Assembly (NCBI GenBank): GCA_964019335.1
Contig: OZ025657.1
Coordinates: 767,852 to 831,851, forward strand
From: Diplonema japonicum
Lineage: Eukaryota; Protista; Euglenozoa: Diplonemea
Direction of reading: 5' to 3'
Length of the DNA stretch: 64,000 bases
Shown here in pieces: positions 33,287 to 64,000 of this stretch. The notes under the pieces are model-generated. The model was not told the DNA's origin. It saw nothing but the letters and a program-made list of their open reading frames with translations, and made no database searches. Made by a program: the position numbers and the translations under genes. The first letter of the stretch is position 1; each line of letters begins with the position of its first letter.

Positions 33287-33898
33287 ATGGAGCGCAGAAG
33301 TGGCGTGTTGGCGTTGTACCGGGCGACTTTGAAGCAAGCGTCTCTGCTGCCCGTCGAGACTCGGAAAGATACTCTGCAGAAGATAAGAGAAACATATAAG
33401 GCAAATGTGAACGAGCAAGCAGACGACAAGGTGAAGGAGCTGATTAAGGACGGGTTCGGGCGGCTGGGGTATCTCCGCACAGTAACACCCAGGATCGACA
33501 AGCGGGGAAGGGATAAGCAGATGCGGAGCCAAAAATATATTGTGAAAGGAAAGGAAGGGTCATTTGTGAGGGGTAAGGGTGATAAGAGGAAGTCGCAGCA
33601 GAACGTGAAGTACGAAGGAGCCTCAAGTGACCCAGAGGTGAACTCGAGGCTGAAGTACGAAATGGACAAGCATCACATGACAGGGCACTATTGGAAAGAC
33701 GAGAAGGCATTTGTGCCTTCTTATGCAAGGAATTTTGAAAATGTTATTATGGAAGCGGCGGCAGTGCACAAAGGTCACAGCGACACGGCAGACGAGCACA
33801 AGTTGGCAAGGAACAGCTACAGCGAGAGGGGTGTTCTTTACGAACGTGTGCGATACCCGCATGCCCCGTGGGACACACCGGTCAAAGGTGGACATTGA
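33287..33898 (+). CDS. LYR-motif (Complex1_LYR-like) protein
   Basis: VLALYRATLKQA...IRETYKANVNE..VKELIKDG matches the LYR family pattern. Confidence 0.75.
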   Translation: MERRSGVLALYRATLKQASLLPVETRKDTLQKIRETYKANVNEQADDKVKELIKDGFGRLGYLRTVTPRIDKRGRDKQMRSQKYIVKGKEGSFVRGKGDKRKSQQNVKYEGASSDPEVNSRLKYEMDKHHMTGHYWKDEKAFVPSYARNFENVIMEAAAVHKGHSDTADEHKLARNSYSERGVLYERVRYPHAPWDTPVKGGH

Positions 33899-33965
33899 GT
33901 TTTCCTACCCCCCCCCCCCCCATTCTTGTTCCGCTTTCAATACAAATAATTTAAAGGAAAGTAAA

Positions 33966-35167
33966 ATGGGGATGCACATCATGCTCAGCACCCTTGAAGG
34001 GAACAGTCACTGCTTGGAGGTAGAAGATTCGTGGTGCGTTTCCGACCTAAAACGCAGAGTGGAAAAGCTAATGAATGTTGAGAAGGGAGAAGTGTCGCTG
34101 TCGCTGGAAGGTGAGGTACTGACCAACGACGCAGAAGAGATATCTGAAATAGGGCTGCTGTCGGACGATGTCATCGAAGTAGGCAAGTCGCACGAGGCAG
34201 TGGCAAAGAGGGATCTGTTCAGGAGGGGCATTGAGTGCACCGAGAAGTCATTAGTTCTGTCTGCAAAGTACGGGTCTCTGGAAGTTGTGCAGCTGTTGCT
34301 CTCCTCAGGAATCGATGTGGACTGCGGCTCCGCTGTGGATGAGTCATCCTTGCAGCGCACAGCGCTGATGACAGCCGCTCACGAATGCAGATACGACATT
34401 GTTGAGGCATTACTCAAGTCAGGCGCTGATATCACTCTGCGTGATGCAGCAGGGGAGACAGCTCTCACCCTGGGCGTAGAGTCCCCCGATATCACCCGCT
34501 TGTTGTTGAAGCACGGCATCGACGTGAACTGCAAGGACTGGTACGGGATGACGGCCCTCATGTACGCCATTGTAAATAGCAACCTCGAGACGACACAGAT
34601 CCTGCTCGACTACGGCGCCCACATTAATGACAAGGACAACGATGGCATCACACCGCTGATGCACGCTGTCGAGTCGGGGCGCGTTGAGGACGTGGCCTTT
34701 GCTTTGTCTAAAGGTGCCCTCCCAGACGAGGAAGACAACAACGGCGTCACTGCTTTGATGCGCGCAGCAAAAGCGAGCAGCTTAGCGATCACGAGGTTGT
34801 TACTAAAGCAGAATGTGGATGTGAACGCTACCAGCGTCACGGGCAAGACAGCACTCACGCATGCTGTAAGCGAGAACACCTGCAACATTAAAGTGGTGCA
34901 ACTCCTCCTTGATCAGGGGTGTGGTCCTAATACCAAAGAGTGCTTCACTGGCACTACTCCGTTAATGCACGCTGTCCAGCGTGGGCACATAGAAACTGTA
35001 GAATGTCTCGCGAAAGCCGGTTCAGATGTAACTGCGAGAGACATCGTGTGCAGTATGTCACTCAAAGATAACAAACAAACAAACGAACAGGGAAGACGCC
35101 ACTGATGTTCGCGTCTCCTTTTTACTACGATGCAATGCGGTGTGCACTCGGACTGGCAGAATCATAA
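33966..35167 (+). CDS. Ubiquitin-like domain plus ankyrin repeat protein, 1 intron
   Basis: N-terminal Ubl (IMLSTLEG..LEVEDSWCVSDLKRRV..LSLEGEVL), then multiple GxTALMxA ankyrin repeats. Intron 35053-35090 (38 nt, GTATGT..CAG) restores the last repeat KTPLMFA. Confidence 0.85.
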
Positions 35168-55680: not shown

Positions 55681-56315
55681 CTGGTTAGGGCCATTCATGT
55701 TGGTAGTTTGTAGATTATTGTTAGCTGCTAGAATGTTATTCTTGTTTGGGAAGAGTTATGTCTAATTACTATATAGGCAACTGGGCAAAATATCGTGATA
55801 CAAAAAAAAGAAAAAAAAAAAAATACTACGAAGATGGCCCTCATTCTTAGCGCGCTCGCTACAGGGGTGTGCAGGGGTGCTGACCTCAAGTCGATCGACT
55901 CTCCTGGGAGGGGGAACAGCCACCGGAATGGTCGGGAGGTAGGCGAAGCGGTGTCTCTGTTCTTCCAAGTGGAGTTGCCTCGGGGGAGGGGACGGAAGAT
56001 GGTATCCTGTAGTTGGAAGTGATCGCAAGTGACAGGGAGTGCGAGGGACTGCTTCTTCGTTCTGCCTGTTTAAGCTGCACGGTGGAGGGGACGATGAACT
56101 TCATCGGGGCGATGGGAGAACGGTGGCGGAAGTGCCGTACGCGGGAGCATCGTGCTCTGCCACAAACAACAAAAAGGCGGATATATGGGTGGCGCAGTCC
56201 TTCGAGGCGGCAGGGTCGGGGACAAACAGAATGTCGTGCAGCTACATGCTAAAATCCCCACCCCTCCCCCCACTCCCCTTTAGAAAAAAATAAAATTAAA
56301 AACTTACAAGTAGAG

Positions 56316-56353
56316 ACCAACGATTCTAAAGCTACAGTTTCTGTACTTTATTG
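56316..56353 (+). other. Spliced-leader exon copy 1 (nt 2-39 of a diplonemid-type SL)
   Basis: ACCAACGATTCTAAAGCTACAGTTTCTGTACTTTATTG, with the euglenozoan SL 3' half CAGTTTCTGTACT(T/A)TATTG. Followed by GTCGTT rather than an SL-RNA GTATG donor. Confidence 0.9.
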
Positions 56354-56870
56354 GTCGTTCGTGTTCTGCTGGTGCCTGCCTGCCGCCTCTGCCTGGGTTT
56401 GCCGCTGCGTCCGTCGTCGCCGTCGTCCGGGGTTGTTTTGCCTGTCGGCCTGCCCGCCGCTTACCGAAAGGATCCCCTCCCCCCAACACACACTTTAAAA
56501 AAAAAATAAAAAAAATAAAAAATGGATCCAAGACGGAACGCAAGAGGAGGTGACTGCGCAAACCGCAGGGAGAAGGAACCCCGACAGGCCGCCAGGCTGC
56601 ACACGACGCCAGGGCCGACCCAACCAGACTATCTGGTTGGGCAGTATGAATCCCCACCCCCCTTTAGAAAAAAAAAATAATAAAATAAAAAAACCACAAG
56701 CAGAGACCGCGGTTTTGACCGCCGCAACCAAGGGAGCAGCAGCCGCCCCTGCTACAGCCACGGCCGCCCCAGCCGCTGAACGCCGCAGCCGACCCTGCCG
56801 CCCCAAACGCCGCAGCCGCCCCTGCCGCAACCGAGACCGCTGCAGCCGCCCCTGCCGCAGCCACGACCGA
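56316..56870 (+). mobile_element. Truncated copy of the SL-headed element (5' UTR and start of ORF only)
   Basis: Near-identical to 60486-~61024; similarity starts exactly at the SL and ends near gccacgaccg. Upstream flanks differ. Confidence 0.75.
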
Positions 56871-56992
56871 CACGAGGCAGCCAGTCGGGGCCTGACACAC
56901 CTAGGGGTGGGATCCAGACGCCAGAGGGAGATCTAAGTAAAAAAGACAAAAATCTTTTTCTAAGAAAGAAAAAAAATTTATAAGTACAAAAA

Positions 56993-57270
56993 TTTCCCTT
57001 AAGGGGGCCCTTAAGGCGAGCAGGGTGGAAAAAAAAATTTTTTTTTTCCCAAGTACAAAAATTTTGGTAACATTTCGCCTAACCCCTATGATCCCCAAAA
57101 TCCCCCTCATAAAAATTTTCCCCAAAGTGGAAAACCCACGGTGGTATACAGGCGTTTTCGGTTTGAAAAGGGAAAAAGTTGAAACACCCGAAGTCGAACC
57201 GGGGTCCAAAATTCCCTTAGGGAAAATCCCTTAAGGAATTCCCTTAGGAAACCCCTTAGGGAAAAACCCC
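56993..57270. repeat. Degenerate palindromic CCCTTA(A)GG / TTAGGG-related repeats
   Basis: tttcccttaagggggcccttaagg at ~56993 and attcccttagggaaaatcccttaaggaattcccttaggaaaccccttaggg at 57211-57261. Confidence 0.6.
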
Positions 57271-57698
57271 TGTGTACTTACTTACTAAGGCAGCATAGGC
57301 TTCTCCAGGAGGCCCATTTTTGCTACCCAGTCCACGCACGACAAGCTGATGGATTTGAAGGCCGCCTACAAGCGGGACCGCATCACTCGACTTCGCAAGA
57401 CGCTCACAGCCTCGATCGGGATGAAAGCAATGCTCCAGAAGGGGAGTATTAACAGATAGACCCCCCCCCCCCCCCCCCCCCCCCTCCCATAGGGCGGCCC
57501 TCTAGCGGGGGCTTGTCCTGTACTTTGAGTTTAATAAATAGTTATTCGTCACCTTTTTCTTGAAGATGTTCGTTTCACAGTAGGTTTTTTTATTTTCTAG
57601 AGGTTCTTCTTCTTCATTTGACTCCTGCAGCCTTCGAGACAAAGCACACAGGGAAAATACATTAGAAAAAAAAGAATAAAAAACGAACCCAAAAGAAC

Positions 57699-59055
57699 AT
57701 GAATGGAAAGAGAGAGGGATCAGGTGAAGAGGTGAACGATATGACAGTGTTCGTGAAGACGGGAGGCGGGGTTCACGATGTGGAAGTGTCGGGGAAGGAG
57801 ACGGTGGGGATCCTGTACAAGAAGGCGGGGTGTGCTGCTGGTTTACTCGAAGGCAAGTTCAAACTGGTTTGGGAGGGAGAGGTCCTGGACAGGAACGGGG
57901 GTGAAGATATCCAGGAACTCGGGCTCGTGGAGGGCAGCGTGGTACATGTGGAGGCGAAGATGAGAACCGTTCAGCTGGAGGAGCTTGAGAGCTCAGAAGT
58001 GGTTTCAGAGCTTGAGGAGCTTGTGACAGCTGACCCTGAGCTGGTTCTGGTGGTGGAGGTGGGGAACTCGCCAGCTGTCGAAGTCTTGTCCATGAAGACG
58101 ACGGTCCTTCCTTCTGGACTTCGGTTCCTCGTTGTCACCGACTCCACAGGCTGTGTTACAAGGATAGGCTCTGGGTTTCTTGAAGAGTGCGACCACCTGA
58201 CGTCTGTTGATCTCATCCTCCCCCAATGTTTCCACCATTGATAAAAAATTTTTATATGAGTGCAAAAATCTAGAAACCATCGACTTGAATGCGATGACCA
58301 ATCTTTCTTCTATTGGTGATAGCTTCTTGTCTGGGTGCGTAAAACTAGAAACCATCAACTTGAATGCGATGACCAATCTTTCTTCCATTGGTCATGGCTT
58401 CTTGAAAGGGTGTGTACTAGAAACCATCAACTTGAATGCGATGACCAATCTTTCTTCTATTGGTGATTACTTCTTGTATGAGTGCGTACTAGAAACCATC
58501 AACTTGAATACGTTGACCAATCTTTCTTCCATTGGTCATAGCTTCTTGTCTGGGTGTAAAAAACTAGAAACCATCGACTTGAATGCGATGACCAATCTTT
58601 CTTCCATTGGCAATAGCTTCTTGGGTGGGTGTGAAAAACTAGAAACCATCGACTTGAATGCGTTGACCAATCTTTCTTCCATTGGCGATAACTTCTTGTC
58701 TGGGTGTAAAAAACTAGAAACCATCGACTTGAATGTGATGACCAATCTTTCTTCCATTGGTGATGACTTCTTGTCTGAGTGCGAAAAACTGGAAACCATC
58801 GACTTGAATGCGTTGACCAATCTTTCTTCCATTGGTCATGGCTTCTTGATTGAGTGCGTAAAACTAGAAACCATCGACTTGAATGCGTTGACCAATCTTT
58901 CTTCCATTGGTGATGGCTTCGTGGCTTGGTGCGAAAAACTAGAAACCATCGACTTGAATGCGTTGACCAATCTTTCTTCCATTGGTCATAGCTTCTTGAA
59001 GGGGTGCGTAAAAGTAGAAACTGTCGACTTGAATTTAAGAAAAGTCGGTGTTTAG
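57699..59055 (+). pseudogene. Ubiquitin-like plus BspA-type LRR gene with a frameshift near 58210-58225
   Basis: ORF 57699-58241 holds the Ubl and the first LRR (VTRIGSGFLEECDHLTSVDL). The LRR array continues in another frame (58207-59055). No GT-AG intron at the junction, so pseudogene or sequence error. Confidence 0.65.
58276..59035 (+). repeat. Coding tandem repeat, ~10 near-identical 75-nt (25-aa) LRR units, two of them 72 nt
   Basis: The unit gaaaccatcgacttgaatgcg(a/t)tgaccaatctttcttccattggt recurs; protein TNLSSIGxxFLxxCxKLETIDLNAx. Confidence 0.95.
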
Positions 59056-60074
59056 AAGAAGAAGAAAAAAAGAGGGGAAAAAAAGAAGAAAAAAGAACAC
59101 CCTGGCGCTGAGAAACATCTTTGTGGAAAAACCAACGGAAAGCAATACAATACCTCGAAGACACCGGGGACCTGCCCCCCTCCGCAACAACTCCACAACA
59201 ACTAACCTGCTGAAGTAGCATGCCGATCAGAAGGCGGCTGAGGCACTTGTCATTTAATCAGAATCCCGAGATCCCATCCCTGATCCCCAAATAGAGAGTG
59301 TACCATCCTGTTTCTCGCGGAAACAGAGAACCTACCCCCTCCCCACCACAGCACCCGACCAATCAGATGCAACAGTGTGAAAAAAAAAAAAGCCCCCCTC
59401 TCCCCAAACAAAACAAACAAACAAACAAACATTTCCCCACCCCCGATAACGTATAATTAAGAAAAAATATGGGGGGGAAAGGATACTGAGGTCCGGCACC
59501 CTTAGTAGCCAAAAAAAAAAGGGAAGGGAAGGGAAGGGACCCTCCCCCTGACCTACAGCAACCCGCCCCCTAAAAGAAAAAAATAGGCGGCAGGCAGTCG
59601 AACGCTGCGTGTGTGGTGTTGCTGTGTGGGTTGTCGGTGCTGTGCTGTTGCTGTGCGCGCTGTCTGGTGTTTTCCTCCCTCCTCCCGCCCCCAAGTCCCG
59701 GCGCTCAGCTCCACCAGCGTCTCACATCAGACGCCAGCTGAGCAGCCTCACCCCCGGCCCCCTACTCCAGGCCGCGAAAAGCCCGACACAACTGTGTTGA
59801 CCCCTGACAACTTCGGTCAAGTCAAAGTCGGCAAACTCCCTTAGAAAAAAAAAAAAAAAAAAAGTAGACTTGTTATCTTCCCTTTCTTTCCTTTCTTTCT
59901 TTTGTTGTCTGTGTTCATCTGTAAAAAAAAAAAAAAAGTCACCTAGAAATCCCTGTATTTTCCTTTCTCTTTTTTTTGTTTTTGTTTTTTGTTTTTGTTT
60001 GTTTTTACATAGAAATCCACTAGAAATCCTCTTTCCTTTCTTCTTTCTTCTCTTTTCTCTCTTTTCCTTTCTTT

Positions 60075-60075
<1 letters not shown>

Positions 60076-60109
<34 letters not shown>
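60076..60109 (+). repeat. Poly(T) tract in a low-complexity region
   Basis: Directly visible homopolymer. Confidence 0.85.
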
Positions 60110-60111
<2 letters not shown>

Positions 60112-60485
60112 AAATAACAATGGACCCACCCGTGCGAAACTAGGGGGAAGAAACTAAAGGGAGGAGGATATCGGGGTGCACGGCGGAGTGAACAAGGGAC
60201 GGGAAAGGCTTTTTTTATTTACAGTGAGCACCCCCATGCACACTGAAATTTTATCGAGTTTACTTTCGTTCTTTCTCGTTCACTGGGAACCAAGGAGAGG
60301 TAGGGGGGGAAAAAGGTGAAAAGAAGTTCAAGAAAGTTGGGGGGGTGGGAGGGCTATCGAAACTTGAGAGGAAGAGATGGAGGAGGGAAAAAGAATTAAT
60401 TAATTTCTTTTTTTTTTTTTTTTTTTAAACCTAGAACCCATATCAAACAATCTTTTTCATTTTCTTTCTTTTAAACTTTTAAACT

Positions 60486-60523
60486 ACCAACGATTCTAAA
60501 GCTACAGTTTCTGTACTTTATTG
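60486..60523 (+). other. Spliced-leader exon copy 2 (nt 2-39)
   Basis: Identical 38-mer to 56316-56353, followed by the same GTCGTTCGTGTTCTGCTGG. Confidence 0.9.
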
Positions 60524-60694
60524 GTCGTTCGTGTTCTGCTGGTGCCTGCCGCCTCTGCCTGGGTTTGCTGCTGCGTCCGTCGTCCGTCGTCGCCGTCGTC
60601 CGGGGGGGTTGTTTTGCCTGTCGGCCTGCCCGCCGCTTACCGAAAGGATCCCCTCCCCCAACACACACTTTAAAAAAAATAAAAAAAATAAAAA

Positions 60695-61752
60695 ATGGAT
60701 CCAAGACGGAACGCAAGAGGAGGTGACCGCGCAAACCGCAGGGAGAAGGAACCCCGACAGGCCGCCAGGCTGCACACGACGCCAGGGCCGACCCAACCAG
60801 ACTATCTGGTTGGGCAGTATGAATCCCCACCCCCACCCCCTAGATCCCCCCACCCCCCTTTAGAAAAAAAAATAAAATAAAAAAATCACTAGCAGAGACC
60901 GCGGTTTTGACCGCCGCTGCTACAGCCACGGCCGCCCCAGCCGCCCTGAACGCCGCAGCCGACCCTGCCGCCCTGATCGCCGCAACTGAGACCGCCGCAG
61001 CCGCCCCTGCCGCAGCCACGACCGCCGCGACCACGACCCCTGCAGCCGACCCTGCTATTGTTGAAGAGGGAAGAAAAGAGGGAGAAAAAAAGGGGTGGGT
61101 ACTGGTGTATGGTGAACACCCTCCCGGGTTGAGGACGGGCCCGGCCCCTGCCTTCCCGAAAGCCCTGCTTTCAGGAAAGTGGGAGGCCCTGTCTGGGAAC
61201 TCAGGGAGGGAGACCCTCCAATACGGGTACCGGTGGGAGGGGACGAACGCCAAGGTGCGCCCCACCACGGGGATCCCAGCAGGGGGGGCGGAGGGGTGGG
61301 TGAGGGAGGTGGCCGCCGCCGCAGGGCTCGAGGTGGTCCCCAACCAGGTACTTGTCAACAAGTACAAGTCTGGTTGTGGGATTGCCGCCCACAAGGACGA
61401 CGCGAGGCTGGGACCGATTGTCCTAGTCCTCTCGTACGGAGCCGAGACCACAATGGTCATGAGGAGGGGGGACAGGGTGGCGAAATACCTGGTGCCCCCC
61501 TTCTCATGGGCATTGTTGGAAGGTGAAGCGAGACACCAGTGGACGCACCACATCCCGTCCGGGATGTCCACTGGTGTCAGGGTGTCGATCACCCTGCGTG
61601 CGGTAGGCCCCAAGCTCACCCGCACACCCCAGAAAGACCCATCCCCTGGGTTAACAGACGAACCCCCTTTTTTAGATCCCCTTTTTGTGGGCAAGGGGGG
61701 GTGGCACTCCCAAGAGAGGATAGTGCCCCACCCGCCCCCCTTTTTTTTTTAG
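60695..61752 (+). pseudogene. Element polyprotein part 1: Ala-rich N-terminus plus AlkB-family 2OG-Fe(II) dioxygenase domain
   Basis: ATG 60695 (MDPRRNARGG) with a 1-nt break in the A-run at ~60863-60885. PNQVLVNKY, GIAAHKD (HxD at 61390-61398), LSYGA, GEARHQWTHHIP (distal His) and RVSITLR (R-x5-R) form a complete AlkB catalytic set. Confidence 0.85.
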
Positions 61753-62162
61753 AACCCTCTTCGGAGGAAAACAGACCCTCTTCGGAGGAAAATAGAGAGA
61801 AAGGGGAAGAGGTGGCACTCCCGAGAGAGGGTGGTGCTCCTCCCCCCCATTTGTCCCCCCCTTTTTCATTTTTAGAGCCCTCTCCAGAGGAACCCTCCAC
61901 GGAGGTAAAAAACAGACCCTCTTCGGAGGAAAACAGAGAGAGAGGGGAAGAGGTGGCACTCCCGAGAGAGGGTAGTGTTCCTCCCCCCCATTCGTCCCCC
62001 CCTTTTTCTTTTATAGAGCCCTCTCCAGAGGGACCCTCCACGGAGGTGAAAAACAGACCCTCTTCGGAGGAAAAAAAGGCAGAGGGAGAGACAGCACGCC
62101 CGAGAGAAGGTAGTGCCCCTCCCTCTCTGCCCCCCATTTTTTCTGGACCCTCTACGGAGGTG
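61701..62162 (+). repeat. ~3 tandem 141-nt (47-aa) units inside the element ORF
   Basis: agaccctcttcggaggaaaa recurs at 61773, 61914 and 62055 (period 141); protein RPSSEENREKGEEVALPREG..PPFSFLEP. Confidence 0.9.
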
Positions 62163-63048
62163 TACACCCTGGTCCCCAAGGGCCGGGGGCTTTTTTTGAG
62201 GGTGGAAGGGAAAGAAAAAAAAAAAACAAACAAGGAGGAACCTTTTTTCTTTTCAAACAACCAGGGGGACCCAGCACCCACCCCCACCGCCCGCCAAGGT
62301 GTGGTTGGGGCGGAGGCTGCGAGCGACGTGAGAGCACCACTGCACACCCTTGTGAGAAGACAGAAAAGAGCCCCCTGGATTGCCATGGGTGGCAGGGAAC
62401 CTAAGCCAGCGCCCAAGCGGAAGAAGAACAGGAGGAGGCACAGGAGCGAAGCGGCCCTTCAGAGGCGTCGGGAGAAGAGGACCAAGGCGAGGGAGGGGGC
62501 GAGGGAGGCTGCCAGACAGGAGAAGAAAAGGCACCGTCGTGCGAGGAAAGAAGGGAGGAGGAGGGCCCGCAGAGAGGAACACGAGGCCGCCCTGGAACAG
62601 AAGCCAGATGACCCTGCAATGGGGCTGAAGCGGACCGAGGTGGGAACGCCTGGAGCCCAACCCCTGGCACCCAGAATCCCGGCACCTGGGGCTGCAACCG
62701 GCACAAGGAGGCACCGCAGACGGACGGGACACAGCAAGGAAGGGGTGAGATGGGAGCACCTGGGGGCGTGGGCCTGGGTCGCCCTGTTCTCCCTCTTGCT
62801 GATCCCAGGGGTGAGGCAGGTGCTGGGGGCGGGCATCGGGATGGCCCCCTCCTTCCTGCATGCGGCAGTGTTGTGGAAGAGGCCGGGGAGCGACAGGAGG
62901 ACCACCCGCAGGTCAAGGGTACAGGTGGGGCCCCGAGGGGATGAATGGTCCGCCGGGGAGCTCGCTTGGCTAGCGGTAGGGGGCACTCTGGTGGGAAGCA
63001 CTTCAGTTTGGATAGGGGGGCTGATGTCGCTCTGGGCCATGGTGGAAG

Positions 63049-64000
63049 CTCTGGGCCATGGTGGAAGTGATGGTGGGGAAAGCTGGTGCTGGCCCGACCC
63101 AGAGATTCGGACCGGTAAAGCTGAAGAAGACAAGACGCGGATCGAGAGGTCACTACCGGCCGGTGTACTTGGGCCCGCCTAGAAGCTCAAGACGCAGAAA
63201 AAAGAAGGAGGACGCCAAGCAAGCGGCGAAGGAACGAGCTGAGACGGAGGATAAGCTCTTTCAGGCCGAACACCTGGGCCCCTTTGCGGACTTGACGCTG
63301 GCAGGGGACGCGTTGCAAGGAGGTGGTGACCCTCCCCCCATGGATTTGGATGATGAGCACATGGAGGCGCAGAAGGAGGGGGAAAAAGAAGGATCAGACA
63401 AACATCAATGCCGGATGGAAGACTGCTCTTTCCGCACCAGTGTGGCAAGCTGTCTAGTTAAACACCTCAATGCGGTCCACCATCATTTTGTGAAACAAGA
63501 GCAGGCGAGGAGCATGAAGGTGAACCTCTGTGGAACGTGTGCTGCGGCGTGCTCGTCGAACCAGACGCACTGTGCACTACACAGGCAGCGGAATCTGTGG
63601 AACCCCGACAAACAACCCAGGGCCGGCAAGTCAGTGGACGAGATCATGAAGAGCTTCAAGCTGACGAGGAGATCGACGGAGAAGGACGGGAACTGCATGT
63701 TCCACGCCCTGGCCGGTTCGCTCGGGGAAGCCTACGGCGACCACACCCACATCAGGAGCGAGGTTGTAGAATGGATGAAACACCGGGAGGAGCACTATGC
63801 CCCGTTTTGCAGTGAGGGTTGGGGCCGGTACTTGGAAGGGATGGGCACAGCAGCGACGTGGGGAGACCACTTGTGCCTGGCAGCCGCAGCACAAGCGTTT
63901 GGCCGCACGATACTCGTGGTTGCTGGGGGGAACAACCCAGTCCTGATGATAGGGGAGTACAACTCCGACCACGAGAAGGTGGTGGTGCTGGCGTACAACG
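63049..64000 (+). CDS. Element polyprotein part 3 (not in ORF track): C2H2 zinc finger, Cys/His cluster and OTU cysteine protease, open to window end
   Basis: Manual translation in the frame of 63061: CRMEDCSFRTSVASCLVKHLNAVH (63409-63480), CGTCAAACSSNQTHCALH, then DGNCMFHALA..IRSEVVEWM..YLEGM...WGDHLCLAAAAQAFGRTILV..VVLAYN (OTU; the catalytic His is expected just past base 64000). Confidence 0.85.

Follow-up and report, generated by a model that had tools for sequence, protein, structure and literature searches.

Why does spliced leader (SL) exon sequence stand twice at the head of the same repeated element, away from any SL RNA gene? The question is raised by a 64,000-nucleotide stretch of Diplonema japonicum DNA (assembly GCA_964019335.1, contig OZ025657.1, positions 767,852 to 831,851), referred to here as the window. 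Two SL-like matches occur in it, at 56316-56353 (copy 1) and 60486-60523 (copy 2), and no others. As described in an earlier note on this DNA, both begin ACCAACG and lack the first A of the leader. Both are 38 nt long and identical to each other, with G as the preceding letter in copy 1 and T in copy 2, and the same element sequence, GTCGTT..., follows directly on the 3' side. The 7-mer ACCAACG by itself occurs at chance level (10 observed against 9.1 expected), whereas the 38-nt match and the shared element of about 550 nt (9 mismatches in 504 aligned nt) exceed chance. The best explanation, which we regard as about evenly balanced between right and wrong, is that a CRE/SLACS-like retrotransposon gave rise to these copies, with an SL-starting RNA reverse-transcribed to near its cap and joined to non-SL DNA by 1-3 nt of microhomology. 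The features on which this depends are as follows.

56256..56318, + strand: flank 5' of copy 1, a divergent segment of element interior (alignment to 60831-60900)
56316..56353, + strand: SL exon remnant of copy 1, +2 to +39 at most (SL identity)
56354..56869, + strand: element part of copy 1, comprising the 5' untranslated region (UTR), the start of open reading frame (ORF) 1 at 56522 and a GCC-rich linker
60446..60486, + strand: target flank of copy 2, 72.5% C+T, ending CTA (contig of run X11)
60486..60523, + strand: SL exon remnant of copy 2, with GT directly 3' (SL identity, contig of run X11)

The two copies are distinguished from SL RNA genes by comparison with reference loci, obtained by scanning metagenome contigs for the 3' part of the exon followed by GT (81 stretches returned). 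Of the reference matches, 28 combine the same exon variant with no less than 20 nt of DNA on the 5' side and an intron starting GTA(T/C); 27 of these start at +1, preceded by another A (some loci are duplicates). The SL exon of D. papillatum, a species with 110 SL genes, is given as 39 nt (PMC10161547), and judged from these sequences the exon of this type is likewise 39 nt long. A U-rich Sm-like site lies within 100 nt in 14 of the 26 distinct reference loci with full exon and GT, and none of the 26 continues with GTC; in the window, no Sm-like site of similar pattern was found in the 150 nt behind either copy. Neither copy has the full 39-nt exon from +1 or a short GTA... intron with an Sm site. 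They also lack a common upstream promoter and a tandem array, as their flanks differ and only two matches occur in 64 kb. The 39-nt exon and GTA... introns of the reference genes thus set the two copies apart from SL RNA genes. Their non-SL flanks show that they are not insertions within an SL array either; the earlier note is borne out on both points. A true SL of 38 nt with GTCGTT as its real intron was also considered and is ruled out by the +1 starts and GTA... introns of the reference loci. No match to the SL followed by GTC was found in the prokaryote genomes searched, nor any to an 18-nt piece of the window SL in the literature searched. Four other loci (L025, L036, L055 and L058) show a full SL exon with few or no intron bases and then unrelated DNA, and are candidate insertions into SL RNA genes.

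The 5' ends of the SL remnants are less uniform than had been supposed. The upstream flanks had been called unrelated, but that of copy 1 is element DNA: 56256-56318 aligns to 60831-60900 with a score of 76, against a best control of 36 among 1,683 stretches. The last letters of this flank, ACC, recur as SL positions +2 to +4, so that any start between +2 and +5 is possible for the SL of copy 1. A contig from run X11 bears on copy 2: it matches the flank as far as 60486 and then diverges into other sequence, starting GGAAG. It is an empty-site-like sequence, from either an allele or a paralogue. This empty site is not an SL gene. It presents a pyrimidine tract and AG at the insertion point, resembling a splice acceptor in this one case. 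As the contig shares the A at 60486, the first A may be target DNA, and copy 2 would start at +2 or +3. In one contig from run X1, a copy-1-type unit ends and is followed by an SL that begins at +1. Microhomology is thus present at both window junctions, and the supposed start at exactly +2 gives way to a range. All three known junctions fall within +1 to +5, which supports an RNA 5' end rather than a fixed +2. The two copies share an identical SL, truncated on its 5' side, while their flanks differ; this favours the copying of an SL-starting RNA into DNA. What survives of the proposal that SL-capped cDNA (complementary DNA) entered non-SL sites is therefore its core, the non-SL flanks and junctions close to the RNA start, without the exact +2 end and the unrelated flank of copy 1.

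In the proposed mechanism, a master copy would lie within an SL RNA gene, immediately 3' of the exon and the GT, and would be transcribed from the SL gene promoter at +1. This is reported for SLACS, in which transcription begins at the +1 position of the SL gene that it interrupts (PMC3447711). The resulting cDNA would stop at or near a methylated +1 base and be integrated at non-SL sites, with the reverse transcriptase (RT) and endonuclease encoded beyond the window end. In both copies GT follows straight after the SL exon, as it does in SL genes, an agreement expected by chance in 1 of 16 cases. An element contig in run X11 begins at 60496, exactly where 31-letter words leave the SL plus GT, which fits the presence of another SL+GT sequence in that run. 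Dispersed SLACS-like copies would be expected in diplonemids, given that a supplement row of the D. papillatum paper lists 745 SLACS-type RT proteins against the 110 SL genes of that species. Copy 1, whose homology to copy 2 stops at 56869 (61024 in copy 2), may be a shortened, non-autonomous derivative, either inserted into an older member of the family or joined to it by template jumping. A solo long terminal repeat (LTR) was also considered for copy 1 and is ruled out, because the homology stops inside ORF1.

Several observations weigh against this explanation. Neither an RT nor an endonuclease is present within the window, and no full-length relative of the element was found in protein and contig searches. 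A master copy in an SL gene was not seen either, though no search aimed at one was made. The known CRE elements sit only in SL genes, as far as two sources describe them (PMC12278014; PMC3447711), and the GT shared with SL genes amounts to two letters. The end of copy 2 falls outside the window; copy 1 has no target duplication or poly(A) tail that could be found, and it represents the 5' part of the element alone; copying that is target-primed and starts at the 3' end would need a later deletion or a shortened RNA to yield such a copy. An X1 contig joins the copy 2 flank to a different upstream part, and the flank in the empty-site-like X11 contig may be paralogous rather than allelic. The X1 contig with the SL from +1 is a single rearranged record.

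The main and strong rival to a master copy in an SL gene, which yields the same product and which we consider possible but clearly less probable, is trans-splicing: the SL would have been added at an AG before GTCGTT... in an SL-less master copy, and the mature mRNA then retro-copied. All mRNAs in this group receive the SL (PMC10161547), and relict SLs mark retrogenes in dinoflagellates (PMC5585692; PMC6050394; PMC12014239). The element itself also seems to contain internal acceptors. In three runs (X1, X5 and X2), contigs join the SL to position 62210, which is equivalent to a joint at 62208/62209, behind the AG of 62207-62208, with GT..AG ends; the short side of these contigs comprises just 19-21 A-rich nt, and they may be taken as a weak hint of a second cistron. 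Trans-splicing would, however, leave the agreement of the first two element letters with the GT of SL genes unaccounted for. In addition, the other 5'-cut SL remnants among the reference loci all start at +5 to +8 (13 of 13), whereas copy 2 reaches +2 or +3. These 13 comprise three genomic-like cases and ten cDNA concatemers from few libraries, with primer artefacts possible. On three genomic-looking contigs (L012, L034 and L040), a 5'-cut SL (from +6, +5 and +7, respectively) precedes gene-like sequence, making them candidate SL-marked retrogenes of diplonemid-type genomes.

The contents of the element are best read in copy 2.

60524..60694, + strand: 5' UTR, 171 nt, not an SL RNA intron
60695..61752, + strand: ORF1, with basic N-terminus, Ala/Thr/Pro linker and AlkB domain
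61195..61599, + strand: AlkB-type 2-oxoglutarate-Fe(II) (2OG-Fe(II)) oxygenase domain (PF13532, 52.5 bits, cut-off 31.2)
61768..62123, + strand: internal tandem repeat, 141 bp x 2.5
62207..62208, + strand: AG, candidate internal acceptor, 176 nt before ORF2 (SL-joined contigs in X1, X5 and X2)
62385..63182, + strand: first part of ORF2, with basic/coiled N-terminus and hydrophobic stretches
63029..63067, + strand: 19-bp tandem duplication, site of a frame change of ORF2 in copy 2
63409..63582, + strand: C2H2-type zinc finger and second Cys/His cluster (pattern match only)
63685..63957, + strand: OTU-like cysteine protease domain (PF02338, 49.8 bits, cut-off 23.3)

ORF1 opens with the ATG at 60695 and in copy 2 meets a stop at 60878, with a frame change at a run of A; the frames would likewise be bridged by a stretch of 47 nt with GT-AG ends (60817-60863). 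A strong GT donor precedes a TTTAG acceptor within ORF1 in both copies, enclosing these 47 nt in copy 2 and 24 nt in copy 1 (56644-56667), and it is the 47-nt form alone that joins the ATG in frame to AlkB. The AlkB domain retains the HxD, H and RxxxxxR motifs. Its nearest solved structure is human ALKBH8 (E 1e-8), with ALKBH3 and ALKBH2 much weaker (E 0.01-0.04), and ALKBH5 and FTO do not appear among the 21 structure matches. In ORF2, the C2H2 pattern lies at 63409-63480 and the second Cys/His cluster at 63529-63582, a region without a Pfam match. The frame of the OTU domain runs off the window end at 64000. Its closest relative among the HMMER matches listed is a Diplonema ambulator protein (48% identity), and the other HMMER matches to this part are generic OTU proteins. 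This relative and the type of SL both point to a diplonemid-type host. Word-based protein searches with the AlkB and zinc finger-OTU parts gave no match, as did tblastn of the element proteins against the reference SL loci.

The element is multi-copy. Many variant contigs occur along all of copy 2 in runs X1, X5 and X2, where the SL is followed by many different continuations and loose ends of poly(A) or poly(T) are found. Run X11 yields near-identical element contigs, one of which extends 2.18 kb beyond the window end. It is unlikely, in our estimate, that the copies are something other than a retrotransposon, either a retro-copied, amplified bicistronic host cassette or an element of another class, such as a tyrosine-recombinase type or a viral relic, moved by a helper RT. 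Such origins would agree with the unseen RT and with the absence of an RT domain from all 18 OTU relatives scanned (the longest and the top ones among 150 listed). They fit poorly with the high diversity of copies, the empty site and the layout of zinc finger, protease and internal repeat, and the 2.18 kb past the window end offers a place where the RT could lie. Least probable is a move at the DNA level, in which SL-headed copies left an SL-array insertion by recombination or segmental duplication and end near +1 by coincidence: microhomology at both junctions would suit it, as would a copy 1 lacking target duplication and adjoining element-internal DNA, but it would bring promoter DNA along or break anywhere, whereas three junctions lie no more than five bases from the transcription start.

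The element class represented by copies 1 and 2, with its AlkB and OTU domains, is likely CRE/SLACS-like, though it departs from the CRE clade in its target site. As in SLACS, CZAR, CRE1 and CRE2, the element body lies directly behind SL exon sequence; an SL-starting transcript is reported for SLACS (PMC3447711). CRE-clade elements are described as inserting in SL genes and carrying zinc fingers and internal repeats (PMC12278014). N-terminal zinc fingers are matched here by the two Cys/His patterns, and the internal repeat region of some species by the 141-bp repeat. The fixed site inside SL RNA genes that characterizes the trypanosomatid members is absent: both window copies lie between non-SL flanks rather than in SL genes, and each is headed by an SL of its own that is cut at the 5' end. 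The window element further differs in having a separate AlkB ORF and an OTU domain, words that do not occur in PMC12278014.

A role for AlkB at the SL cap had been suggested, such that copying to +2 might depend on the element's own enzyme. Base methylations such as those of kinetoplastid cap 4 stall RT. A stall at a methylated +1 base yields a +2 end, so that AlkB is not needed to explain an end at +2 or +3. In trypanosomes, the base methyls of cap 4 lie at +1 (m6,2A) and +4 (m3U) (PMC11417388). Position +4 of the window SL is C, where m3U cannot occur. The +4 modification is moreover coupled to Sm assembly in trypanosomes (PMC2879531); an RNA of the element that has no Sm site would then escape this modification, and RT could pass +4 without help. 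It is most likely that AlkB serves the general upkeep or unmasking of element RNA, not cap read-through.

There is nonetheless a version in which other base methyls that block RT, such as m3C at +4, are removed by the element's AlkB so that the cDNA reaches +2. The catalytic motifs are intact, the +5 to +8 stops of other SL remnants hint at a block near +4 or +5 in ordinary mRNAs, and a retrotransposon-borne AlkB with RNA demethylase activity is described for orchid Gypsy elements (PMC9289625). This version is improbable when set against the C at +4, a +2 end that is itself the outcome of an unremoved +1 methyl, passage beyond +4 that is known for copy 2 only, and a domain nearest to ALKBH8 with the much weaker or absent structure matches noted above. 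Slightly more doubtful again is the full scenario of a CRE-derived lineage that has left the SL array, is headed by the SL, inhabits acceptor-like sites and strips RT-blocking methyls from the SL cap with an AlkB from its own cistron; if true, it would be a case of a transposon editing the euglenozoan cap. No description of the cap chemistry of the diplonemid-type lineage was found in the literature covered.

Other known systems share parts of this arrangement. The relict-SL retrogenes of dinoflagellates similarly bear a 5' leader copy that marks passage through RNA, but they are host genes, whereas in the window it is a mobile, repeated cassette that bears the leader, here the euglenozoan one of 39 nt (PMC5585692; PMC6050394; PMC12014239). 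The AlkB-bearing Gypsy elements of Phalaenopsis orchids are likewise mobile through an RNA stage and encode a 2OG-Fe(II) domain in an ORF of its own; in contrast, they are LTR elements with an ALKBH5-like m6A demethylase, and are so described in PMC9289625, while the window domain is nearest to ALKBH8. NeSL/Utopia elements are restriction-like endonuclease (RLE) elements linked to SL or small nuclear RNA genes, with a protease ahead of the RT, though their N-terminal cysteine protease is Ulp1-like and that of the window element is OTU (PMC4640811). Each ingredient has precedent, namely SL-starting SLACS RNA, relict SLs, protease-bearing RLE elements and retroelement AlkB. Plant RNA viruses also carry AlkB, and a CRE element of a choanoflagellate has an OTU domain. 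The literature searches made gave no report of a diplonemid-type genome in which a dispersed SL head is combined with an AlkB ORF and OTU, a matter on which the section on repeats and structural RNAs of the D. papillatum paper may bear. None of the literature matches listed describes a probable non-LTR element with both an AlkB ORF and an OTU protease.

Full 39-nt SL exons from +1 also occur on three viral contigs (IMGVR_UViG_3300046534_001516, with loci L082, L083, L085, L087, L089 and L081:7676; L084; and L088). A T stands directly before each exon, and behind it a short UTR and then an ATG take the place of an intron. An AAA(A/T)TGAA motif, which resembles the mimivirus early promoter, lies 25-26 nt upstream in six of the seven viral SL exons checked. 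The 238-kb viral contig encodes VLTF3 and a VP39-like cap methyltransferase, which identify it as a giant virus, and a diplonemid-type host is likely. SL exons on such contigs are not reported among the literature matches listed. No relative of ORF1 or ORF2 was found in a wider search of viral contigs, one 16-residue match being taken as chance.

Outside the element, the window is a one-strand, tightly packed eukaryotic gene array; its genes are intron-poor, in contrast with D. papillatum, and three of its host proteins have counterparts in a eukaryote protein set. A single unbroken frame of at least 9,332 codons covers 3-28001, and a ubiquitin-ankyrin gene lies at 33681-35105. Between copies 1 and 2, at 57699-59055, lies a fusion of a ubiquitin-like domain with BspA-type leucine-rich repeats (10.4 units of 75 bp), with a frame change near 58230. 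Downstream of copy 1, palindromic CCCTTAGGG-like units that resemble telomere repeats form a short array (57209-57269). An Rfam scan of the window gave chance-level matches only.

The 5' junctions of SL-headed copies would serve as a fossil record of the point at which RT ends on the SL cap. A genome-wide table of such junctions would bear on cap structure and on how SL-gene-specific retrotransposons spread to other sites. With its AlkB ORF and OTU domain, the element would join the few mobile elements that carry a nucleic-acid oxygenase of their own.

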